Shown: positions 1 through 15,387, counted from the stretch's first letter. The stretch: DNA of 35,354 bases from Myxococcales bacterium (GCA_045863395.1 BTVJ01000076.1:1-35354), one strand, 5' to 3'. Numbers and translations: made by a program. The notes: a model not told the origin generated them from the sequence alone.

Positions 1-1
1 C

Positions 2-2491
2 TCCGGCTGCGCCCGCGCGAGTCCGATGAGTCGCCCCTCGCGCCGCCCGCCGTCGACAGGCCGTCCCCTGGGCGGGGAGACCGGAGGGGTCCGCGTTGCG
101 GCGGCGGAGCTGGCGCGCCAGCTCCAGGAGGGGGGCGCCCGTGCGGACGGCGTCGAGGAGCGGGAGGGGAAGCGGCGACCGTGGGGGGATCCGTGGGCCC
201 CCGGCCCGGCCTGCCACGATGGCGCGGGCCAGCAGATACGGGCTCGCCTCGAGGAGCGGCTGGCTCATGGCCCGCGCGGGCTCCGGGTCTCCCCCGCCCA
301 GGGCGACGGAGGCCGCGCGCCCCAGCACGTCGGCCGCCGCCGCGGCGACTCGGGGGTAGCGGGCGCAGTCCTTCCACGCCCGCAGCAGGCGATCATGGAT
401 CGTCCGGAGCGTCCCGGCGTCCTTCAGCCTCGCCATGGCGGCCAGGGAGGCGGCCGCCGCGAGGCGGTCGCCGGCGGCCAGGTCCGCGATGCCCGCGGCC
501 TCACGCGCGAGCGCGGCGCGGGCCTCGTCTGCGCCCGCGTTGGCCGCGCCGACCAGCACAGCCACCAGCGCGGCGCGCTCCTCGGCGAGGAGCGGCTTGC
601 GGAGCATCGCCGCGGCGATGGTCGCGGCCTCCTCCAGGCGGCCCGCCCCCGCGAGCTCCCGCGCGGTGGCGACGCGCCGGGAGGCCGCGTGCTGGAAGCG
701 GGGGTCCGACACCGCGGCGTCAGCCCCCACGTCGGCGGCGAGCAGGCGGAAGGCGGCACGGGAGGCGGGCGCGGGGAGGACGTCCACCCCCGCGTCGTCC
801 ATGGGCAGGAGGGCGAGGGCGGCGTCGGCCACGGCGCGGGCGTCCGGGGATGCCGCCGTGGCGAGGGCTCGCACCAGGCGCGCGGCCGCGTCCAGCAGGG
901 CTGCGTCCTCCGCCGTCGCGGCGCGGAGGGACCGCAGGATCCACGAGCGCCGCCCACTCCAGGCGATGGCGCTGCCCTGCTCCAGAGCCTCCGCGGCGGC
1001 GTCCATGAGCGCCGCACCCAGGGCCGGGCCCGCTCCGCCCTCCTGGAGGGTCCGGTCCAGCACCTGGCGGCGGACTGCGCGGGCCTCCGCTGCCTCCGCG
1101 CTCCGGCCCGCCCGGTCCAGCAGCGCGGAGGCCAGGGCGGCGCTCTCCGCGGCCTCCAGACCCGAGGCGCCCGGCAGCGCGGCCCCCGTCGAGGCGAGGA
1201 CCTGGGTGGCGAGTGTCCCGATGGCGACTCCGGTCGGGCTGTCCCCGCCGGAGGCGATGAAGCGCGCCAGCGCGAGGACCTCCCGCTCGGTGGCCTCGCC
1301 GTCGGCCATCATCGCGGCCAGGGCCCGCGCATGCTCGTCGCCGTGCCCCAGGGCATGGAGGGCGGCAGCGCGAGCGTGGGGCTCCCCGTCGAGCAGCGCG
1401 TCCAGGGAGGGGGCGCCGGCGGCCTCCACGGAGGGCGCCTGCACGACGTGGGTGGTGGGCGACACGCCGAGCGCTGCGGCCTGGGACACGCGCCCGAGGC
1501 GCAGGAGCGCTGCGGCGCGCCGCGGGATCGCCAGTGGGTGGCGGCTCCACGGCTCCAGGGCCCGGAGGGCAGCCTCGTCATCTCCCTCGAAGGCCTCCAG
1601 GTCCGCTCGGATCAGCGAGGCATCCGGCCGCGTCGGGGCCAGCGCCACGGCCCGATCGAGGAGCGCCCGCGCTTCGTCGATGCGCCCTGCGGCCTCCGCC
1701 AGGTCCGCCCGCAGGAGGAGGCCGTCGAGCCATGGGCCCCCCAGAGCGGCCTCCACGGCGGCGATGGGCTCTTCGGCTGCCGGGTCGCCCAGCAGCGCAA
1801 GCTCGCAGGCTCGCTCCACGGCAGGGTCTTCGAGCGTCGTCGGGGCATGTGTCCCCGAGGTGGCATCCTCTGCGCGCCCACCGCTGGAGGCCTCCGGCGG
1901 GGCATGGCGTGCTCCGGCGGCGCTCACCGGGTCTGCATCGTCCCCTCGCGCGTCCCTGGCCGTGAGGCCCGCAAGCGCCGTCAGAGCCGGGTAGCGCCGC
2001 CGGAGGCGGCCCCAGCCCGCGACCGACCGCTCGCCGCGGAGCCAGGCGTCCGTCGCCCCCGCGTCTGCGAGCAGGGAGGCGAGCGCTCTGGCGCTCTCGG
2101 TGAGTGCTGACTCTGGGAGCCGGTGCCCTCCCCGGCGGCTCGCGATCTCGGCGTCGACGATGGCTGCCGCGGCCCCGAGGGCGCCCTCCGGGTCGGGCGC
2201 CGTTGCGATGCGGGCCGCGAGCCGGTCGAGGACCTCGTCGGGCCACGCGCCGAGCGCCTCGCGCAGCACGGCGATGGGGACGGCGGGAAGCTCCACCGGG
2301 CGGCTGGCCAGCTCTGCGTCGAAGCCAGCCGCCCGCAGCGCCCGGAAGACGCGGACGTCGGCGGGGCGGTCGCGCTCGTCGAGCCAGGCTCGGGCGAGGT
2401 CCCCCAGATCCGCCGGGTCGAGCGTCCCTCCGCCCCCCGACAGGGCGCTCCAGAGGCTGGCTACCCCGTCGAGGGTGCTCCAGTCAGGCTT
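2..2491 (-). CDS. Long Ala/Leu-rich helical (TPR-like) reading frame running off the window; probable -1 frameshift continuation of the 2461..3117 gene
   Basis: Absent from the ORF track because its stop lies outside the window. I found no in-frame stop from 2491 to 2 (830 codons). It reads KPDWSTLDGVASLWSAL..., with a TPR-like stretch LLLRADLAEAAGRIDEARALLDRAVALAPTRPDASLIRADLEAFEGDDEAALRALE at about 1550-1725. G/C-ending codons start right after the A10 run. There is no ATG near the 5' end; the first GTG is at 2296 and has no clear Shine-Dalgarno (SD). Confidence 0.8.
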
Positions 2492-2508
2492 TTTTTTTTG
2501 GCCGCCTC
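2457..2508 (-). other. Candidate -1 frameshift / transcriptional slippage signal (A10 run, upstream GAGG, downstream hairpin)
   Basis: The minus strand reads GAC GAG GCG GCC AAA AAA AAA AGC CTG ACT GG (T10 at 2490-2499 on +). GAGG lies at 2505-2508. After a 6-nt spacer comes a possible stem CUGG..ACCCU-CGAC-GGGGU..CCAG (2483-2457). Confidence 0.55.
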
Positions 2509-3117
2509 GTCGAGGGCGGTGGGGAGCGCGTCGAGGGGGAGCCCTTCGAGGGATCGTCCGAGGGCTTCGGCCAGCGCCGCCTCGCCCGCCGCGCCGTGGA
2601 GGCGCAGGAAGCGCTCCAGGGGAGCATCCAGGGGGCGCGCCGGGCGGGTCTCGGTGACCACGTCCCATGGGCGCCCATCGACGTCCAGCGCTGAAGGCAG
2701 GTCTGGCCGCAGGCGCGCTCGCCTGACCTGGACCGCGATCCCCGCGCCCCAAGGCGCCACCGCTCCCACGTCCTCCGAGGCGAGCCCCAGCGAGCGGGCG
2801 ATGGCCCCCACTCCCGGCAGCGGGCCCTGCTCCCGTGGCGCCAGGTGGAGCGTCCGCGACGCGGACGGGCGTGGAGGCAGGTCGAGGCGCCGGACGGCGA
2901 CGGTCACCGCACCGGTCGCGAGGGGAACCCGGAGCCGCACAGGTCCGCGACCCAGCCGCGCCGCGCCGCGGATACGCACCACCGTGCCCTCCCGCGCGGC
3001 GCGTACGTCGAGGAGGTCGTCGGCGCCGAGGCCGCAGGCGTCGTGCAGCGCGCGCGCCAGCACGCCGGCCGGCGCGGCGCAGTCCACGAGGAGCTCCGCC
3101 CTGTCTCCTTCAGACAT
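2461..3117 (-). CDS. 218-aa hypothetical protein with two putative DbpA-type RNA-binding (RRM-like) modules; N-terminal part of a frameshifted gene
   Basis: The ATG overlaps the upstream stop (ATGTCTGA, 3110-3117) after a G-rich SD. Segments PAGVLARALHDACGLGADDLLDV and PGVGAIARSLGLASEDVGAV...VQV...LDVDGRPWDV resemble the DbpA RNA-binding-domain pattern (by eye). The frame ends about 10 codons after the A10 run. Confidence 0.7.
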   Translation of the reverse strand: MSEGDRAELLVDCAAPAGVLARALHDACGLGADDLLDVRAAREGTVVRIRGAARLGRGPVRLRVPLATGAVTVAVRRLDLPPRPSASRTLHLAPREQGPLPGVGAIARSLGLASEDVGAVAPWGAGIAVQVRRARLRPDLPSALDVDGRPWDVVTETRPARPLDAPLERFLRLHGAAGEAALAEALGRSLEGLPLDALPTALDEAAKKKSLTGAPSTG

Positions 3118-5305
3118 TGGACCCCCCAGTCGCCACCTCGACGGGAGCCCTCACGCGGTAGCGCCGATCCCCCGGGGCGCCGCTGCCCGCGTCCACGCTG
3201 TCCACCGGGGCAAAGAGCTGGTCACCGGGCTTCAGGTCCGCGAGGCGCGCCCCCTCGGGGAGGTCGCCCGCGACCACGCGCACGTCGGAGGGGAAGGTCT
3301 CCCGCCCGCCCCGCGCTGGCGACTCGATGGACGCCCAGAGCGCACCCCGTCGCGGGACCACCTTCCGCACGCGCAAGGACAGCGAGGCCCCCGTACCGAT
3401 GCGGAAGCGTCCTTCAAGGTCCGTCACCCGACGGAGCCGCTCCTCCTCGGACCAGCCCGGGTCGACGGGGCCGTCCACCCAGTAGATGCGGAGGCCCCCC
3501 TTGCGCTTGAGGTCGTCATCTCCCCGCACGCGGGCGAACACGTCCCGGCCCTTCTTCAGGTCCGCCAGGTCCAGGTCCCCCGGCAGGTCGGCGCGCCGGA
3601 CCATCACGCGGATGTGCTTGTGCTCGTACCAGGACGGGGCCGGGTGGTCGACCGCCTCCGCCAGCGCAAACCCCTCGCCCGTGTAGACCACACGCAGCCG
3701 CAGGGGGCGCCCGCCCACTCCGATCTCGTCCTCGTGCTCCAGCAGGAGCTCGCGGCGCTGCCGCTCCAGTGCCGGGTGCGCCGCCACCCTCTGCCGCAGC
3801 TCCCGCGCTCGCTGCTGCAGCGGCCCGGCGGCGCCGGCCAGCGCCCGCAGCGCCTCGTCCACCTCCGGCAGCTCCCGCTCGGCGGCGAGCATGGCCTCTG
3901 CCCACCGCAGGCGGAGCGCGTCGTGTCCGCCGCCCGCGAAGCCCTCACGAAGCAGGTCGAGGGCCGCCTCCTCCCGACCAGCCTCTCTCAGCAGCGCCTC
4001 GCCGCGGTCCCAGAGCGCCGCGAGCCTCCGCAGGTCGCGCACGTGCACGAGCTGCCCCGTGACGTGCTCGGCGGCGGCGTCGGCGCCGAGGCGCGCGGTC
4101 AGGTGCGAGAGCCAGCGCCCGAGCTGCTCCTCGTCGAGGCGCGAGAAGGCGCCCCGGTTGGCCGCTGCCGCGGCAGCCCGCAGAGCCTCTGCCGGGATCT
4201 GCGGCTCCTCTCCGGTCGCCAATGCTGCAAGGGCGTGCTGCACCAAAGCGGAGGCGGGCTCCCGGCTGCGGGGCGAGCGGGTGACGTCGGCGACCAAGGC
4301 TTCCAGGAGCGCTCCCCGATCACCGGCCTTCTCCAGCGCCTTGCGCAGCGCCTTGTGGAGCCCACCCCGGTCGCTCGGGCGCGCGGACTGCGCGCGGGCC
4401 CGCAGAGGTTCCACGAGCGCCGCCCAGTCGGGCTTCTGAAGGACCCCGGCTCGCTCTGCGCCACGGAGCGCGCGCAGCAGCTCGCCGTCGGACAGCCGCC
4501 CTGGTGCCGCCAGGGAGATCAGAAGTTCCCGAGCCTCCTTGCGTGCGCCGTCGCCGGCCCCCTTGGCCTGGAGGCGGAGCAGGGCCACGTCGAGGCGCGT
4601 GGCCTCGATCTCGGGCGCTGCGCCGAATCTGTCCCCGAAGTCGGCGGCCAGGACGCGGAAGCGTGTCAGCGCTTCGTCCCGCACGCCCGCGTCGCTCCTC
4701 CCGGCGTGGGCGGCCACCAGCCGAAGTCGCGCGGCCGCGATGCCCACGTTCCAGGGGCGCTGCTCCAGAAAGCCGTCGAGGCGCGAGATGGCCGTCTCCA
4801 GCCGCCTCGCGAGCGCCTCGTCCTCCGGGTCTTCGGCCAGGGTGCAGAGCAGGCGAGCCCAGGCGCCGAACAGGCGGTCCCCGGCGAGGGGGCTCGTCGA
4901 CGCCGCCTCGCCCAAGTCCAGCATGCGCGCGCGCCTCTCATTTGGCGCGAGGTGACCTAGCTCGAGCAGCGCGGCGGCGATGGCCAGGTCGTCCGGGTCG
5001 TTGGCGACCCCTGCCGCCAGCAGTGGCGCTCCGGCGCGCCACAGCGCAGCGAGCCTGTCGTCGTCACGGTCCATGGCCGCCAGCCCGAGGATCAGCACCG
5101 CGAGGTTGTGCTCCACGTATGGCGAGACCACCCGGCCGGCGCCGACGTCGGCCTCCACGTCCGCGCGCAGGGCGCGTGCCAGGTCGAGGAGCTCGGCCGC
5201 CTCGGCCCCTGCTGCCGAGAGCGGCTCCAGCGCGGCCAGTGGGGAGAGCAGCGTGGCGCGGAGCGCGATGGGCTGTGCTCCTGCGTGTTCGTCGGCGTAT
5301 GGCAT
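3110..5305 (-). CDS. 731-aa hypothetical protein: helical/TPR-like body plus two C-terminal S1/OB-fold-like repeats
   Basis: Likely start MPYADEH at 5305; the ORF-track extension to 6160 is the rhomboid shadow. The body is Ala/Leu helical. The C-terminal repeats VMVRRADLPGDLDLADLKKGRDVFARV and VRVVAGDLPEGARLADLKPGDQLFAPV resemble each other and the S1-domain C-terminal pattern. Confidence 0.75.
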   Translation of the reverse strand: MPYADEHAGAQPIALRATLLSPLAALEPLSAAGAEAAELLDLARALRADVEADVGAGRVVSPYVEHNLAVLILGLAAMDRDDDRLAALWRAGAPLLAAGVANDPDDLAIAAALLELGHLAPNERRARMLDLGEAASTSPLAGDRLFGAWARLLCTLAEDPEDEALARRLETAISRLDGFLEQRPWNVGIAAARLRLVAAHAGRSDAGVRDEALTRFRVLAADFGDRFGAAPEIEATRLDVALLRLQAKGAGDGARKEARELLISLAAPGRLSDGELLRALRGAERAGVLQKPDWAALVEPLRARAQSARPSDRGGLHKALRKALEKAGDRGALLEALVADVTRSPRSREPASALVQHALAALATGEEPQIPAEALRAAAAAANRGAFSRLDEEQLGRWLSHLTARLGADAAAEHVTGQLVHVRDLRRLAALWDRGEALLREAGREEAALDLLREGFAGGGHDALRLRWAEAMLAAERELPEVDEALRALAGAAGPLQQRARELRQRVAAHPALERQRRELLLEHEDEIGVGGRPLRLRVVYTGEGFALAEAVDHPAPSWYEHKHIRVMVRRADLPGDLDLADLKKGRDVFARVRGDDDLKRKGGLRIYWVDGPVDPGWSEEERLRRVTDLEGRFRIGTGASLSLRVRKVVPRRGALWASIESPARGGRETFPSDVRVVAGDLPEGARLADLKPGDQLFAPVDSVDAGSGAPGDRRYRVRAPVEVATGGSNV

Positions 5306-5386
5306 GGCGGGGCCAACAGTAGCCCGACTCTCTCGCCCCGCGCAAGCCGCTCGACGGAGCCTCCTTCTGGAGCTAACGTGCGGGCC

Positions 5387-6121
5387 ATGTTTCCGCTCCG
5401 CGACGACATCGACACCCGCCGCACCCCCTGGGTCACCTGGGCCTTCATCGCGCTGAACGTGGCGGCCTTCCTCTGGGAGCTCACCCTGGGCGAGCGGCTC
5501 CACGACGCGTTCTACGACCTGGGCCTCGTCCCGGCCTTCTACTCCGATCCGCAGCTCTCCATGGACCTCACGGCCACCGAGCAGGTGCGCCCCTTCCTGA
5601 CCTCGATGTTCCTGCACGGGGGCTGGACCCACGTCATCGGCAACCTCTGGATGCTCTGGATCTTCGGCGACAACGTGGAGGACTACCTCGGGCACCTCCG
5701 CTTCGTCGTCTTCTACCTGGGCGCGGGGGTCCTGGCGGCCGTCGTCCACCTGGTCACCAACTGGGGCTCCACCGTACCGACCATCGGCGCCAGCGGCGCC
5801 ATCGCCGGGGTCATGGGGGCCTACTTCGTGCTCTACCCCAAGGCGCGGGTCCTCGCGGTGGTGCCCCTGTTCGTGATCCTGTGGCCGCTGGTGGTGCCCG
5901 CGGTGGTGTTCATCGGTCTGTGGTTCCTGCTCCAGTTCCTGAATGGGGCGTCGAGCCTCGTCGCAGGCATGGACGGGGGCGTCGCGTGGTGGGCGCACAT
6001 CGGCGGCTTCGTCGGTGGCATCCTCCTGCTCGGCCCACTGGGGCTCGGCCGCACGCGCCGCCAGCGCGCTGCCACCGGGTGGCCTGCGGGTCGCCTGGAG
6101 CGACGCCAGCGCTTCAGGTAG
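5387..6121 (+). CDS. Rhomboid family intramembrane serine protease
   Basis: Start MFPLRDD; motifs TSMFLHGGWTHVIGNLWML, FGDNVED, GASGAIAG (catalytic Ser) and WWAHIGGF (catalytic His); multiple transmembrane segments. Confidence 0.95.
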   Translation: MFPLRDDIDTRRTPWVTWAFIALNVAAFLWELTLGERLHDAFYDLGLVPAFYSDPQLSMDLTATEQVRPFLTSMFLHGGWTHVIGNLWMLWIFGDNVEDYLGHLRFVVFYLGAGVLAAVVHLVTNWGSTVPTIGASGAIAGVMGAYFVLYPKARVLAVVPLFVILWPLVVPAVVFIGLWFLLQFLNGASSLVAGMDGGVAWWAHIGGFVGGILLLGPLGLGRTRRQRAATGWPAGRLERRQRFR

Positions 6122-6327
6122 CGCGCCGTCAGGGCGAGTCCGGCTCCCGCCTCCTCTCACCGATCCTGCAATTCTCGCCCTCCGGGCCCACTTGTGTTAT
6201 GGAGGCGACAGGACTTTGAAACGCGGTGGACCCTCCGTTCGGGGGGCGACCCTTGTGGGCGTTGCGCCCGTGCGCCCAGGGCGGAGTGACGCCAGTGTTG
6301 GGGAAGGGCGAGAAAAGAGGAGCTTTC

Positions 6328-7638
6328 ATGCGAGGAAGACTCAGAGCGGCTCTGCTCGCGGCGTTGGTCGCCGTGTGCATCCCAACGGGCGCAAGCGCCC
6401 AGATCCCGAACCCGAGCCTGCACATCGGCCTCTTCGGTGGCTACCACATCATCAGCGAGGACGCGGACTTCGGAGACCACGGCCTCGTGCCCCAGCGCCG
6501 GCTCGAGAGCGCGCCGGACTTCGGCATCCGCATCGGCGTCAACTTCACGTGGCTGTTCGGCCTCGAGCTCGAGGTCGAGGACGCCATGGCCAACGTCGAC
6601 GTGCTGGACGAGACGGTCCACCTGATGAGCGGCAAGCTGCTCTTCGTGTTCCACTGGCTGGAGGACAGCAAGGTCGTCCTTCCCTACGCCCTCATCGGCG
6701 GCGGCATCTACGGGCTGCTTGGAGATGATCCGGGAACGGACGTCGACTGGCTCGCCACCTACGGCATCGGGGTCAAGTTCATGCTCGCCGACTGGGTGGC
6801 CTTCCGCATCCAGGCGACCCACGTGATCCACGGCGATGGCCTGGACCTGGCCATCGCCAACAACTTCGACGTCACCGGCGGCTTCGACTTCTTCGCCTGG
6901 GTGGGCCGAGAAGAGGAGCCGCCCCCGCCGGCCGACCGCGACAAGGACGGCATCCTCGACGTCGACGACCGCTGCCCTGACGATCCCGGCCTGTCCGCCT
7001 TCCGCGGCTGCCCCGATCGGGACAACGACGGCATCGCCGACCTCGACGACAAGTGCCCGGACGAGCCGGGCATCCAGTCCTTCCAGGGCTGCCCGGACAC
7101 GGACGGCGACGGCATCATCGACTCCAAGGACAAGTGCCCGAAGGAGGCCGGCCTGGCCGAGTTCGACGGCTGCCCGGATCGCGACGGCGACAAGATCCCG
7201 GACTACCAGGACAAGTGCCCCGACACCCCCGGCATCCCCGAGGAGATGGGCTGCCCGGCCAAGCCGAAGGAGGAGGTGATCAAGAAGTTCAGCGGTGCGA
7301 TGCGCGGCATCGTGTTCGACACGAACAAGGCGACGATCCGGAAGCAGAGCTACGGCATCCTCGACGAGGCCGTCGCAGTGCTGGCGGAGTTCCCGCACAT
7401 CTCGCTGATCATCGAGGGCCACACCGATGACCGGGGCTCCGACGCCAAGAACCTGAAGCTGAGCCAGGATCGTGCTGACTCGGTGAAGCAGTACCTGATG
7501 TCCAAGGGCATCGCCGGCGACCGCCTGACCGCCATCGGCCACGGCGAGGCGAAGCCCACCGCGACCAACAAGACCAACGCGGGACGGCAGGAGAACCGGC
7601 GCATCGAGTTCAAGATCGTCCAGCCCAACGTGCCCTAG
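6328..7638 (+). CDS. OmpA family protein: signal peptide, outer-membrane beta-barrel, thrombospondin type-3-like Asp/Cys repeats, OmpA-C peptidoglycan-binding domain
   Basis: SD GAGGAG before ATG 6328; signal peptide ending ASA; four DxDxDGIxDxxDxCP repeats; IEGHTDDRGSDAKNLKLSQDRA and GRQENRRIEF. Confidence 0.93.
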   Translation: MRGRLRAALLAALVAVCIPTGASAQIPNPSLHIGLFGGYHIISEDADFGDHGLVPQRRLESAPDFGIRIGVNFTWLFGLELEVEDAMANVDVLDETVHLMSGKLLFVFHWLEDSKVVLPYALIGGGIYGLLGDDPGTDVDWLATYGIGVKFMLADWVAFRIQATHVIHGDGLDLAIANNFDVTGGFDFFAWVGREEEPPPPADRDKDGILDVDDRCPDDPGLSAFRGCPDRDNDGIADLDDKCPDEPGIQSFQGCPDTDGDGIIDSKDKCPKEAGLAEFDGCPDRDGDKIPDYQDKCPDTPGIPEEMGCPAKPKEEVIKKFSGAMRGIVFDTNKATIRKQSYGILDEAVAVLAEFPHISLIIEGHTDDRGSDAKNLKLSQDRADSVKQYLMSKGIAGDRLTAIGHGEAKPTATNKTNAGRQENRRIEFKIVQPNVP

Positions 7639-7640
7639 CG

Positions 7641-7684
7641 GTGGGCGCCGGGGGAGGGGCTCGGCCTCTCCCCCGGGTGTCCAC
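7641..7684. terminator. Long GC-rich hairpin between convergent genes (possible bidirectional terminator or stabiliser, no U-tract)
   Basis: GTGGGCGCCGGGGGAGGGGC-TCG-GCCTCTCCCCCGGGTGTCCAC pairs over about 20 bp with G-U pairs and one bulge, and fills the gap between the two stop codons. Confidence 0.55.
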
Positions 7685-9045
7685 TACGCTCCGCGCTTGC
7701 CTCGGGGGGGCGCCGGCCCGCCGGCCCTCCCCGCCGCTGGCCCCCCGGTCCGTGGCGTGGCCGGCCCCGCTCGCCGCGGCGCCGCCTGCCTCCGTGGCCC
7801 GGCCCCGCCTCCCCTCACGGACTCGCTCCCCGCCCCCTCTGGTCGCCTCAGCCACACCAGGTGCTCCGGGCGCTCAGCGCCGTCCTCCCGCTGCGTCCCC
7901 ACCGGGGCCCGGTCTGGCCGGCTCTGGGAGGCGATGGCCACCGCGTCCAGGCCGGCCCTGGGCGCCAGCTCCTCGATGATCACCTGGCTGTCCACCAGGC
8001 GGTCACCCACCCGTGAGGTGCCGATGAGCAGGAGCGCGTGGCCCCCCCTCTGAAGCACCCGGGCCATCTCGGACAGCACCGCCAGCAGGTCGTCTCGCCA
8101 CGTTGCGATGGCCCGCTCCGGGTCGGTGGCCGCGCGCCGGCTGCCGATCTCGGTCTCCGCCGCCCGCCGCGTCCCGATGCCGAGCAGGCCCGAGCGGAGC
8201 GCCTGGTGGGCGAGGTAGTCATAGGTGCCCAGGTAGGGGGGCGACGTGACGATCAGGCGCACGGACTCGGGCCCGATGCCCCGGAGCCGTCGGGCATCCC
8301 CCTCCTGGATTCGCGGCGGGAACGCCCGCTCGGGTGCCGCGGCGGCGAGGGCGCCGAGCTGGGTCGCCAGCTCGCCCGCCCGCCGCACGAAGAAACGCGA
8401 CGTGAAGCCTCGGGCCAGGGAAGGCGGTGCGGCCGCGAGCTGCGAGTCCGCCGCCTGGTTGGACACCTTCACCAGCATGGAGGAGAGCGCCATCTCCAGC
8501 GCGTCCCGGACCCGGGAGCTCTCCACCGACGCGATGCCGGCGAGGAGGTTGGACAGCTCCCACCGGACATGGGGCTGGAACCAGCGCGCCTCGCTGGGGC
8601 GCGACAGGCGCTCCGAGCCAGGCGCGCGCCCCCGGGTGCGCGCCAGCTCGAGCGCAGCCTCGCCGACCCGCGTCGCCTCAGCGCGCAGCAGCTCCAGGTC
8701 GGCCTGGGGCCACAGCGCCGTCTTGATGCGCGCGATCCGCACGGCCAGCGGGTGCGCGTCGACCCCGAACCCCCGGCAGCCGGCCAGCAGGGCCTCGACG
8801 AGCACGGTGCCGCTCCCCACGAACGGGTCGAGCACCCGGTCCCCTGGGCGGGCGAGCGCCTGGATGAGCCGGGCGGCGATGTCTGGGTGCATGCGGGCCG
8901 GGTAGGCGTGGAAGGCGTGGGTCAGCCGCCGCCACTCCTCGCCGGTGGGGACGTCCAGCGCGCGCCGCAGCAGCGCGGTCTCCCGCTCGGGCCCCTTCGT
9001 GCGCACGGGTCCCCCCACCGTGCTCAGCGCCTGTCTTCGCCCCAT
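7684..9045 (-). CDS. Amino-type DNA methyltransferase (SPPY, N4-cytosine-like), orphan
   Basis: THAFHAYPARMHP; SAM-binding VLDPFVGSGT precedes catalytic IVTSPPY; EMARVLQRGG; basic low-complexity C-terminal tail. No restriction endonuclease is adjacent. Confidence 0.85.
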   Translation of the reverse strand: MGRRQALSTVGGPVRTKGPERETALLRRALDVPTGEEWRRLTHAFHAYPARMHPDIAARLIQALARPGDRVLDPFVGSGTVLVEALLAGCRGFGVDAHPLAVRIARIKTALWPQADLELLRAEATRVGEAALELARTRGRAPGSERLSRPSEARWFQPHVRWELSNLLAGIASVESSRVRDALEMALSSMLVKVSNQAADSQLAAAPPSLARGFTSRFFVRRAGELATQLGALAAAAPERAFPPRIQEGDARRLRGIGPESVRLIVTSPPYLGTYDYLAHQALRSGLLGIGTRRAAETEIGSRRAATDPERAIATWRDDLLAVLSEMARVLQRGGHALLLIGTSRVGDRLVDSQVIIEELAPRAGLDAVAIASQSRPDRAPVGTQREDGAERPEHLVWLRRPEGAGSESVRGGGAGPRRQAAPRRAGPATPRTGGPAAGRAGGPAPPRGKRGA

Positions 9046-9055
9046 GTGGTGGCCT

Positions 9056-10678
9056 CTATTTGAGTGCGCTGCCGACCGCGTGCAGGAGCTCCTCCCGCGA
9101 GAAGGGCTTCGGCAGGGACGGGATGTCCTGGCGCTGGGTGTACTCGACCACGCCGGTCATGAGGATCACCCGCGCCGTGAGCGCTGGATACCTGGAGATC
9201 AGGGCCTCGCGCAAGGCCAGGCCGTCCATGCCCGGCATGCGAACGTCCGTCAGGACCACGTCCGGAGCCTCCCCCGCAAGGCTCTCCAGGGCGTCCAGTC
9301 CCGATCCGAAGGCCAGGACGCCGTAGCCTGCGTCGCGCAGGATGGTGGCCACCAGCTCCCGGATGACGGGCTCGTCGTCCACCACCATGGCGACCCTTCC
9401 GCCCCCTGCGACCTCCTCGACCATCGGCCGGGCAGGCACGACGCTCGTCCGGCCCGCTACGGGGAGGGTCACCCTGAAGATCGCCCCGCCCCCGTTGCGG
9501 TTCTCTGCCTGGATGTGCCCTCCGAGCTCCCTGATGATCCCGTAGCTCACCGCGAGGCCCAAGCCGCTGCCCTCGCCGACGCCTTTGGTGGTGAAGAAGG
9601 GAGAGAAGAGCAGCGTGCGGTGCTCGGGACGGATGCCGGGCCCCCGATCCCGCACCTCGATGACCGCTACGTCGTCCGCCCCAAGGGCGACCACCTCCAC
9701 GAGGTGCTCCGAGCCGTGGTCGCCGGCGTTGTCCAGCAGGTTGAGAAGCGCCTGGGCGAGGCGCTGGCGGTCGGCGATGACCTCCACGGATGGGTGCAGC
9801 CCCCCCGTGTGGAGCCCGATGCGCGTCGCAGGGTGACGCGTCGTCGTGATCTCCGCAGCATCGCGCAACACGTCGAGGACCCGCACGCGCTCCCCCCGGG
9901 CGCCGTCCCTGCCCGCGAAGGTCTGGAGGTTCGACACGATCCCGGCGATGCGCATGGCGTGGTCACGGATCGTCACTGCCCGTGTCCTCAGATCGTCGCT
10001 CAGCGCAGGGGCCATGGCCAGGAGGTCTGCCTGACCCCTGACCACGGTCAGCGGGTTGTTGATCTCGTGGGCAACGCCCGCGGCCAGCGCTCCGACGGCG
10101 GCGAGGCGCTGGGCGTGGGCAAGCTCCTGCTCGAGGCGGAGCTTGTCGGCGACGTCGCGGAACGTCAGGAGGAGCTGGCCCGCGGCCTCCCCGGCCTCCT
10201 GTGGCAGCCGCACGGCACGCATGGTGGTGCTGACGATGACCCCGTCCGCGCGCACGAGGTCGATGCCCACGTCCAGCCGCCCGTCCACGTCGCCCTCCAG
10301 CGCGATGGACAGCCGCGCCGCCGACTCCTCGGTGATGTGGTCCTTCAGGAACCCCCCGGGAGCCACGCCCGCCGGTAGGTCCAAGGTCCGCGCGAAGGTC
10401 TCGTTCCAGCGGAGCACACGGCCTTCACCGTCGATGGTCGCGTAGAGATCCGGCGCGTGGTCGTACAGGGTGCGGTACCGCTGCTCGGAGGCGCGCAGGG
10501 CCGTGGTGCGCTTGGCCACGACGCCCTCGAGCGTGGACATGGCTTTGACCACCGCGTACCGGTCGCCCGAGACGTCTGCGGAGCTCTCGTGGAGCTGGCG
10601 GCGGACCAGCGCGTCGATGGTCCGGCGGGCCGCGCGAAGCTCGGCCTCCACCGCCTCGATGTGCTCCCGGGAGGTCAT
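9056..10678 (-). CDS. Hybrid sensor histidine kinase (coiled coil, PAS, HisKA, HATPase, receiver), NahK-like partner of the FIST protein
   Basis: H-box AHEINNPL, N-box LLNLLDNA, DRGPGI, FSPFFTTK, GSGLGL; receiver VVDDE...LTDVRMPGMDG...KPF. The ATG overlaps the FIST stop (ATGA, 10675-10678). Confidence 0.95.
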   Translation of the reverse strand: MTSREHIEAVEAELRAARRTIDALVRRQLHESSADVSGDRYAVVKAMSTLEGVVAKRTTALRASEQRYRTLYDHAPDLYATIDGEGRVLRWNETFARTLDLPAGVAPGGFLKDHITEESAARLSIALEGDVDGRLDVGIDLVRADGVIVSTTMRAVRLPQEAGEAAGQLLLTFRDVADKLRLEQELAHAQRLAAVGALAAGVAHEINNPLTVVRGQADLLAMAPALSDDLRTRAVTIRDHAMRIAGIVSNLQTFAGRDGARGERVRVLDVLRDAAEITTTRHPATRIGLHTGGLHPSVEVIADRQRLAQALLNLLDNAGDHGSEHLVEVVALGADDVAVIEVRDRGPGIRPEHRTLLFSPFFTTKGVGEGSGLGLAVSYGIIRELGGHIQAENRNGGGAIFRVTLPVAGRTSVVPARPMVEEVAGGGRVAMVVDDEPVIRELVATILRDAGYGVLAFGSGLDALESLAGEAPDVVLTDVRMPGMDGLALREALISRYPALTARVILMTGVVEYTQRQDIPSLPKPFSREELLHAVGSALK

Positions 10679-11907
10679 CGCACCGGCCCCTCCGCGCCTC
10701 GCGCAAGGGCGACCCCCGTGAGCGTCTCATTGACCTGCATGAACCCGAACTGCTCGCCGTACGTGTGGAAGCCCGCGGTCGGGGCGATGATGGTCGCGTC
10801 GGCCACCTGCCGGTCGATGCCGCTCACCCGCGCCTCGATGAAGCGCCCGCCGCAGTTGAACTGGATCAGCGCGCCGATGTCACGGCCCAGCATGCCCCGC
10901 ACGTGCGCCATGGCCTCGCGGGAGTCGGCGAGCATGTCGCCCGCCTGCATCACCGTGAGCACGACCCCCTCGTCCACCGCGCCCCCCAGCACGAGCTCGT
11001 CCCCGTCGATGGACATGACGCTGCGCATCGTGTGCTGTCCGCCCACCAGGAAGGCCAGTGATCGGCGCCAGCGGTGGAGCTGGCCGAAGGGGTCAGCGCG
11101 CAGGCGAGACTCCGGGACCTCGAGGATGTCGGCGAACACCCGCACCGCCGGCCAGCCGTCCAGCTCGCGGACCCGACGCCGGAGAGGGTCCGCCTCCGTC
11201 ACGACCACCCTGCGGTCCGTGGGGTGGTAGTGGTGGCTGTGGAACACCTGGAAGCCCGCTGGCCACCGCACGATGAGCAGCGCCGCGGCCCCGGGCAGCG
11301 CCCGGTCCTCGTGGAAGATGCTGGTCTCCCGCATGTCGTAGTCGTCCCCCGCGGATCCCCCCACCGACGGGAGGCCGATGGCCTCGGCCGCCATGTGGGC
11401 CATCAGGAGCTCCTCCATGCCGGAGAGGCCGTCGGTGAGCGTGATTCCGAAGCAGCCGTCCGCAGACGCGGCCCCGGGGGTCGTGCCGACGGCCCCGCAG
11501 GCAGCCTCCATGACGTGTCGCGTCCGGTCGATGTGCAGGGAGTGGAGGTCGTCGATGACGGCAGCAGCCACGCGGAGCTGGTCGCCGCCGAGTGCGAGGG
11601 CGCTGATCCCGCCCGTCGTCCAGCCCGCGATCCCCACCTCGCCCATGGTGGTGCAGCCCAGGACCAGCGTGTCCGGGAAGGCCGCCTTGACTCCCCGGCT
11701 CAGCGTGTAGCGGTCGTGCCGGGACGACGCGAACATCAGCAGGAGGCGGGGCGCAGGGCGACCGGGGCGGGCGAGCTGGTCGATCAGGTCTCCCAGGGCC
11801 TCCGGGGTGGCAGTCTCCAGCGAGTGGGCGGCGCGGACGTCCAGGGCAGCGCTCCCCGTCGTCGGGGCCCGGTTGGCCGTGCTGTGCGAGGCCGTCTCGT
11901 GGGTCAT
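10675..11907 (-). CDS. nosP: FIST-domain signal transduction protein (NosP-like)
   Basis: GCTTMGEV, LTDGLSGMEE, VGGSAGDD, RRVRELDGWPA and GFHTYGEQFGFMQVNETLTG are FIST_N/FIST_C motifs. It is coupled to a hybrid kinase. Start chosen at MTHET (11907) after AAGGGA; the gene symbol is a family-level call. Confidence 0.85.
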   Translation of the reverse strand: MTHETASHSTANRAPTTGSAALDVRAAHSLETATPEALGDLIDQLARPGRPAPRLLLMFASSRHDRYTLSRGVKAAFPDTLVLGCTTMGEVGIAGWTTGGISALALGGDQLRVAAAVIDDLHSLHIDRTRHVMEAACGAVGTTPGAASADGCFGITLTDGLSGMEELLMAHMAAEAIGLPSVGGSAGDDYDMRETSIFHEDRALPGAAALLIVRWPAGFQVFHSHHYHPTDRRVVVTEADPLRRRVRELDGWPAVRVFADILEVPESRLRADPFGQLHRWRRSLAFLVGGQHTMRSVMSIDGDELVLGGAVDEGVVLTVMQAGDMLADSREAMAHVRGMLGRDIGALIQFNCGGRFIEARVSGIDRQVADATIIAPTAGFHTYGEQFGFMQVNETLTGVALARGAEGPVR

Positions 11908-12123
11908 TGCGGGTCCCTTCTGGTGCCACATCTCCACTGAAGGCACGGCTGTGCGCTATCCGTCGAGTTTCTGTACACCATCGGCGTGGGAAGCGCAAAG
12001 CCTCGGTCTCCCGTGCGCCTGGCGCCAGGGCCGTGAGCGCTGGCGATGGGGACCCCACTGGAATAGACTCCCGCTGAGCTGCGCCACGGAGCGCATGGGC
12101 CAAGCCCCTCCGAGGAGGACACC

Positions 12124-15387
<3,264 letters not shown>

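Follow-up and report, generated by a model that had tools for sequence, protein, structure and literature searches.

We conclude that a run of ten adenines in the genome of a Myxococcales bacterium is very probably a programmed recoding site, through which one gene gives rise to two proteins. The run lies in the 35,354-nucleotide stretch of DNA that was analyzed here (the window), which is the entire contig C76 of an 8.77-Mb genome with 71% GC. Standard decoding of the A10 mRNA would yield a 218-aa protein with tandem RNA-binding domains (RBDs), and addition of one A by RNA polymerase would join the same N terminus to about 800 residues of helical repeats, possibly aided by, or mixed with, -1 slipping of the ribosome on the AAA codons. 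Both products are proposed to act with the TPR-S1-S1 protein encoded upstream in an RNA-binding complex. The initial annotation had suggested that one gene yields 218 aa and a fusion of more than 1,030 aa; conservation across the gene family supports this, with the length of the long product secure to about 1,000 aa. The features on which the argument turns are listed in Table 1.

Table 1. Features of the recoding locus, in coordinates of the window unless another locus is named
Feature	Position	Strand	Remarks
A10 recoding site (AAA AAA AAA AGC, the run ending before GC)	2490..2499	-	contains in-frame A_AAA_AAA heptamer
ORF1, 218 aa, default short product	2461..3117	-	two RRM-like (DbpA/YxiN RBD-like) domains, helical hairpin, tail
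-1 frame, C-terminal part of long product	2..2500	-	alpha-helical, TPR-containing; bases 1 to ~110 unreliable
Upstream gene, 731 aa	3110..5305	-	overlaps ORF1 start by 8 nt; TPR-like solenoid and two S1/CSD-like OB domains
GAGG, weak SD-like 4-mer	2505..2508	-	7 nt before heptamer, not conserved; from pairing comparison
Predicted stem-loop, -33 kcal/mol	2432..2478	-	starts 11-14 nt past run; from folding; role uncertain
Candidate A7 frameshift cassettes	L016:3379-3460, L018:8222-8303, L023:7219-7300, L026:7405-7486, L040:1983-2064		candidate

The run is exceptional in its surroundings, as the initial annotation had noticed. A run scan of the whole window found no other A/T run longer than 4, and there are only 10 A/T runs of 9 or more in the genome. 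Lysine is encoded by AAA in 1,941 of 56,146 cases (3.5%) across 4,992 long ORFs chosen by length and codon bias; in these ORFs 99 of 101 KKK triplets are written AAG-AAG-AAG, and the sole AAA-AAA-AAA is the A10 site. What had been read from the three frames also proved accurate. ORF1 ends in AAKKKSLTGAPSTG and a stop that comes 9 sense codons beyond KKK (about 10 had been claimed), the tail of the short product including KKKSLTGAPSTG; the +1 frame closes immediately (GCC TGA); and the -1 frame, for which at least 830 codons with normal codon bias had been claimed, has no stop from 2500 to the contig end, a span of 833 codons, with codon bias moving from the ORF1 frame to the -1 frame at A10. 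Genes with programmed slippage are expected to have at least nine A/T within the coding sequence at a frame junction, as this gene has, and -1 frameshifting calls for an X_XXY_YYZ heptamer in the zero frame, which A_AAA_AAA supplies.

The same arrangement recurs in related genomes. A search with a profile built on the N-terminal part found matches at E 1e-12 or better in 23 of 107 genomes of one class of Myxococcota, and strong matches in a 401-genome sample of the phylum were confined to that class; twelve weak phylum matches, most of them covering the first domain (E 1e-7 to 5e-4), were excluded as probable DEAD-box helicases. A metagenome scan gave 5 loci (including one cut and one repeat of a counted genome), a scan of a genome collection gave 10 (nine repeats and one cut), and the G418 locus is interrupted by a contig end. 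Two contigs carry the G040 locus (L032 and L056), and the copies agree at 3,501 of 3,501 bases; this reflects a duplication or assembly redundancy, and the locus was counted once. Once repeats and cut loci were removed, 25 distinct loci were left, which are related and not independent. The initial annotation had advised a search of homologs for the tract and the frame break: a run of A7 to A10 stands at the domain junction in 20 of the 25 (A9 or A10 in 15, A7 in 5), and no other A/T run reaches 7 in the 155.5 kb that cover the 19 run-bearing relatives. Conservation in non-identical homologs has been used as a criterion for slippage genes (PMC1088944), and both the run and the ORF layout are conserved in this way here.

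The loci differ in their default frame. Eleven of the 25 are out of frame, with A10 (the window and G420), A9 (G012, G040, G054, and G019), or A7 (G397, G045, G421, L023, and L026), and in all eleven the long product requires a -1 shift. Nine are in frame (G010, G043, G028, G017, G419, G048, G033, G417, and L027; G017 was placed by its open frame, the codon-bias rule having tied). All nine have exactly A10, in three codon phases, and their other two frames close within 4 to 22 codons; at these loci a slip would truncate the product. The remaining five are without a run, which is therefore not universally needed: G001 (GC 56%) is fused, and G030, G025, G058, and G004 are split, with a downstream start that overlaps the stop (ATGA, GTGA, GTGA, or CTGA). 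Separate genes without an A-tract had been named in the initial annotation as evidence against recoding; they are found at a minority, these 4 of 25 loci. Further frame breaks occur 265 and 314 codons past the run in L035 (G054) and L040 (G045), in both cases without an A-run; these are probably assembly indels, so the run lengths of the two loci are less sure.

Proteins point in the same direction. A protein-level search returned 27 matches, of which 22 were read (5 repeat-rich ones lay outside the set). After removal of one unrelated protein and one that was too short, 20 remained, and KK or KKK is present at the junction in 17 of these. In the subtype to which the window belongs the run comes about 45 residues later, behind a helical hairpin. 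Three proteins with 42-66% identity to ORF1 (P0006, P0013, and P0014) have K207-K209 in common and then end 20, 7, and 7 residues on, breaks that were judged from protein ends only, and the fused P0024 (1,038 aa) has KKN at about the position of KKK. The -1 frame of the window aligns over its full length with the fused G001 and P0024 at 33-34% identity; the homology begins by codon 4 to 7 and is weak in the first residues. A 156-aa homolog, P0016, ends in EKKKL as a G043-type gene with one more A would, and would then require the opposite shift, as judged from the protein only. Longer forms were not found with ORF1 alone as the query, which is weak evidence, and a search with P0024 yielded 2 weak loci. 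We dismissed as chance the 23 stretches retrieved by an 18-nt DNA pattern scan, because their record titles named unrelated taxa.

In a tree of the 25 loci (midpoint root, with G001 on a long branch and two rows less than half filled), the four states must have changed at least 8 times, and the run must have been gained or lost at least 4 times. The split G004 and G058 nest beside the A9-bearing G019 with full support, and G004 retains the CCC TGA found behind the run of G019. Given this position within a run-bearing clade and the retained CCC TGA, splitting looks derived in at least these two. The sisters G420 (out of frame) and L027 (in frame) have the same A10; a 20-nt indel downstream of it switched the default frame and left the run unchanged. 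Layout is stable within clades, with 6 of 6 loci in frame in one and 4 of 4 with A7 in another. Retention of the run under either default frame is consistent with a two-product site but not with a broken gene. We infer that the family keeps a supply of a short RBD-only protein together with the helical part and that default frame and mechanism vary.

At the window locus, slippage of RNA polymerase is probably, if not by a wide measure of confidence, the main route to the long product. Less likely, yet deserving serious attention, is -1 programmed ribosomal frameshifting, in which two tRNA-Lys would move back by one base on A_AAA_AAA, favored by the slow reading of three rare AAA codons and by a downstream stem; the join peptide, AAKKKKPDW, would be identical for either route. 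Runs of nine A slip efficiently (PMC5009743 and PMC1088944). An in-frame A_AAA_AAN heptamer is found in 20 of 20 runs, as is automatic for A9 and longer, and this speaks for the ribosome, as does the need for -1 at every out-of-frame locus. A10 in the contig of the one sequencing run labeled RNA (X6) likewise tells against slippage. The genome encodes both tRNA-Lys(CUU) and tRNA-Lys(UUU); both lysine tRNAs are also present in Thermus, where they have been linked to dnaX slippage (PMC5009743). In E. coli, A_AAA_AAA shifts much less readily than A_AAA_AAG does (PMC5009743), and the accessory signals at the window are poor.

The initial annotation had pointed to two such signals, a GAGG just upstream and a hairpin beginning 6 nt downstream. 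Both exist, but neither is convincing as a stimulator. An internal SD is expected about 10 to 14 nt before the heptamer, and the GAGG sits at 7 nt, leaving the window without an SD at the expected distance; 17% of in-gene windows pair equally well (percentile 0.17), the median percentile over 20 loci is 0.32, and no conserved internal SD was found upstream of the run in the 20 run-bearing loci. A stimulatory 3' stem-loop is expected 5 to 9 nt past the heptamer. Folding around the run, which had been proposed as a check, did reveal a strong stem, but at the greater distance given in Table 1 (12-15 nt past the heptamer) and not at 6 nt, and it outcompetes the hairpin at 6 nt, which is weak (-9.7 kcal/mol). 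The strong stem gives the ribosomal route borderline support (z -2.07, with 8 of 200 shuffles as stable), although 55 of 500 synonymous recodings fold equally well. A helix 5 to 9 nt downstream is absent from the best fold of the window and from the four A9 loci, and one of 6 bp or more is present in 3 of 11 A10 loci, which counts against slippage. As many as 104-286 of 300 recodings are as stable at the A9 loci (n=4); among the A10 loci (n=11), two stand at 5 and 7 of 300 and the remainder at 13-274. No family-wide stem was seen in fold windows of 45 to 60 nt, and a consensus fold of four A9/A10 loci gave nothing useful (-5 kcal/mol). No promoter-like or terminator-like sites were found in window positions 1-6300. 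Since the SD and the 6-nt hairpin are unsupported as stimulators at the window, we rank polymerase slippage above ribosomal frameshifting.

The A7 relatives carry a candidate -1 ribosomal-frameshift layout, consisting of A_AAA_AAA, a 6-nt spacer that includes the TGA stop, and a stem-loop some 65 nt long. In 5 of 5 A7 loci, four of which form one clade, a 7-bp helix begins 6 nt past the heptamer. Few sequences equal the 72-nt fold, namely 0-1 of 99-304 in-gene windows and 1-4 of 500 synonymous recodings, the 72-nt window having been picked after the A7 consensus fold was seen (smaller windows missed the hairpin). Two-sided covariation is absent from the base helix, where a single one-sided change occurs, and this counts against the ribosomal route. 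The helix and the rarity of the fold nevertheless suggest that the family does use that route. Long runs mostly lack a stimulator and short runs have one, a pattern that fits polymerase slippage at A9 and A10 and ribosome slipping at A7; probably, then, the A9/A10 sites are transcriptional and the A7 sites with their stem-loop ribosomal.

A contingency switch had been offered as an alternative in the initial annotation, with A10 as a tract for DNA slipped-strand phase variation and the population in a state without the long protein. A mononucleotide run of 10 is suited to this, the in-frame A10 gene G417 resembles the out-of-frame A9 type with one more A, and P0016 (protein only) would likewise be one A longer than the G043 type. 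We nonetheless consider a switch improbable. Parts of the stretch are contained in 20 of 23 listed sequencing runs, and in the four that were compared (X1, X2, X4, and X6, from four studies, X1 possibly being the window's own source) one contig each bridges A10 without a gap. Run length does not differ among the 4 populations compared, as seen in majority contigs, where minority alleles and mRNA indels are invisible. The stability of layout within clades argues in the same direction, as do the G420/L027 pair, in which the frame changed outside an unchanged run, and the fact that none of the out-of-frame loci is one base too long. Judging from their predicted folds, moreover, the products look cytoplasmic and RNA binding and not surface exposed.

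More improbable still is that two coupled genes are present, with a stop at 2461, re-initiation in the -1 frame, and the run as a remnant or an enhancer of initiation. The start-stop overlaps of the 4 split loci among the 25 are what such coupling would look like, A7 and A9 loci retain CTGA at the same place, and the window has a CTG at 2443, 17 nt past the stop and preceded by GGAG. A canonical ORF2 start within about 10 to 20 nt of the ORF1 stop, present in 3-4 of the split homologs, is absent in the window, however, where the first ATG, GTG, or TTG of the -1 frame is a GTG at codon 69, well behind the point at which homology to the fused relatives sets in. Nor does re-initiation explain A10 in nine in-frame genes.

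The reading of the site as a homopolymer assembly error or recent pseudogene, to which the error-prone nature of long runs and the extra, indel-like frame breaks of G045 and G054 lend some color, is largely refuted by an identical A10 in three independent studies, by the same break in proteins 42-66% identical, by a downstream frame that is free of stops, and by strain differences in that frame (190 to 2327) that favor third codon positions (10 of 16, two of the 16 from a contig of depth 2.7; binomial p 0.016 versus one third). Seven of the 15 codons affected are synonymous, and none of the differences creates a stop. The initial annotation had named A8 or A11 in accurate data as the mark of such an error, and the contigs of all four runs have A10, among them that of X6, which is labeled RNA (and may contain DNA). 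The contigs from the three other studies differ from the window at 5 (X2), 24 (X4), and 10 (X6) other letters. As these contigs span the run without a gap, A10 is confirmed as genuine and not an assembly error, as far as contigs can tell.

The contig end is another matter. Eight differences fall at positions 66-94 and were excluded from the strain comparison; X2 and X4 agree there with each other and not with the window, and the X1 contig starts at 112. For these reasons the first 110 bases or so of the window are doubtful and are probably a mis-assembled contig end, window positions 35-107 matching the end of contig C56 at 85%. The long product is consequently secure only to about 1,000 aa or more. 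Its true C terminus presumably lies beyond the contig (the X2 and X4 contigs run about 10 kb and 0.9 kb past the window end), and the joined product as read from the window would have about 1,000 to 1,040 aa.

As to what is encoded, ORF1 appears from its predicted structure to be a tandem RNA-binding-like protein, with RRM-like parts at about aa 1-81 and 84-159, a helical hairpin at 164-207, and a KKK-SLTGAPSTG tail. The model (pLDDT 86.7, pTM 0.49) contains two beta-alpha-beta domains, for which the top fold matches are the RBD of YxiN (Z 6.8, rmsd 2.5, 68 aligned) and DbpA (Z 6.7, rmsd 2.4, 70 aligned); a Z under 8 may mean only a common arrangement, and the subfamily of ORF1 is not settled by these matches. 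DbpA is also the best PDB sequence match of the family profile (E 0.002). ORF1 does not reach the Pfam cut-off for PF03880, to which 2 of 17 homologs match weakly (best E 0.0015), and Foldseek with ORF1 found nothing at E 0.001 or better. The extension matches TPR_14 at E 1.5e-4, below the cut-off.

The upstream gene is the only neighbor kept in 12 of 12 long loci, the others being present in at most 4 of 12. Its predicted model (pLDDT 84.6) is a helical solenoid with two beta domains that match S1 domains (TM about 0.44); Foldseek with this protein returned generic helical solenoids only, and beyond weak TPR matches neither it nor ORF1 is named by Pfam, NCBIfam, or PADLOC. Complex prediction gives weak support to binding of ORF1 by the upstream protein, with a score of 0.60 (best of 3 controls, 0.01), runs that agree in at least 91% of contacts, and a partner pLDDT of at least 66. 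Of 157 solved complexes, 116 attain the mark for this score, as do 2 of 215 mismatched pairs, and scores of 0.60 or less include only 18 of the 157 solved complexes and both mismatches. As the likeliest role, these models suggest a part in an RNA-binding complex, with the ratio of the free RBD pair to an RBD-scaffold fusion being set by the recoding site, and the short product could feed back on its own mRNA. Far more tentatively, the class may possess a two-gene ribonucleoprotein machine (TPR-S1-S1 plus tandem RBD) in which that ratio is selected and has been reached by four solutions in one family: polymerase slippage from either default frame, stem-loop -1 frameshifting, a start-stop coupled split, and full fusion.

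Elsewhere in the window lie genes for a rhomboid protease (5153-6118, + strand), an OmpA/TSP3 protein (6226-7638, +), and an N6/N4 DNA methylase-like protein (7684-9045, -); in G001, too, the gene pair is preceded by a rhomboid gene and by a similar methylase-like gene. Positions 9056-11946 (-) presumably encode a hybrid histidine kinase, with a FIST-like gene upstream of it, and 12124-15387 (+) what we take to be a 1,087-aa cysteine-rich repeat protein. An in-frame A8 occurs in G000 at about 35046 of contig C65, in a gene that we assume to be an acyl-CoA carboxylase beta subunit.

Conserved recoding is uncommon in non-mobile bacterial genes, the usual examples being dnaX, prfB, copA, tssM, and mxiE. 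The present family would add a new member to the dnaX/tssM type, with the site in 20 of 25 loci, and brings a candidate RNA-binding operon, so far unstudied, to notice. Our literature searches, whose coverage left out most subscription papers, found no papers on the family, and the string "myxococc" is absent from the main text of PMC3711429, the cluster tables of which could list a member. The natural series (A10 in frame, A10 and A9 out of frame, A7 with a stem-loop, split, and fused) makes it possible to test directly how run length trades against a 3' stimulator, and with it a change from slipping polymerase to slipping ribosome. In annotation, the 11 out-of-frame loci would wrongly appear as a pseudogene, or as a small gene followed by an ORF that has no start.

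Several known systems resemble parts of this one. The TOTE/TALON conflict systems combine a TPR-CSD fusion with TBP and an effector (PMC12458937), and the upstream gene here is like them in having a TPR-like solenoid with S1/CSD OB domains; from this analogy a defense role is possible. S1CSD-TOTE clusters are among the weak feature matches of the upstream protein (scores 0.82-0.83), but the TOTE profiles PF22707 and PF22708 have no match at the locus at E up to 1, PADLOC has no hit there, and the comparison of neighbors over 12 long loci showed no conserved TBP or nuclease gene. The putatively RNA-binding ORF1 domains resemble the C-terminal RBD of DbpA/YxiN (PF03880) in their top fold matches; unlike in those proteins, they form a tandem pair without a helicase and fall below the Pfam threshold.

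The closest parallels in recoding are tssM and dnaX. The tssM gene has an A11 run that interrupts it in Citrobacter rodentium, which requires both TssM variants, and an A9 run in frame in Yersinia pseudotuberculosis (PMC4256274). Shared with the present family are the poly-A run, the two length variants, and a default frame that is reversed between species, slippage in tssM being transcriptional. In contrast, tssM encodes a type VI secretion membrane protein, few tssM genes have a run, and the shift required in C. rodentium is +1, whereas here the run is present in 20 of 25 loci and every out-of-frame case needs -1. For dnaX, the long and short products arise by -1 ribosomal frameshifting in E. 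coli and by polymerase slippage on A9 in Thermus (PMC5009743), and two-ORF dnaX genes with A7 to A10 exist (PMC3711429); the window genome's own dnaX-like gene is without an A-run of 4 or more. The present family differs in encoding tandem RBDs and helical repeats and not a clamp loader, and in having split and run-less fused orthologs. Like dnaX with its tau and gamma proteins, however, it appears to obtain an N-terminal short product and a long product from one chromosomal gene, with in-frame and out-of-frame layouts, runs of 7 to 10, and a mechanism that seems to depend on the lineage.
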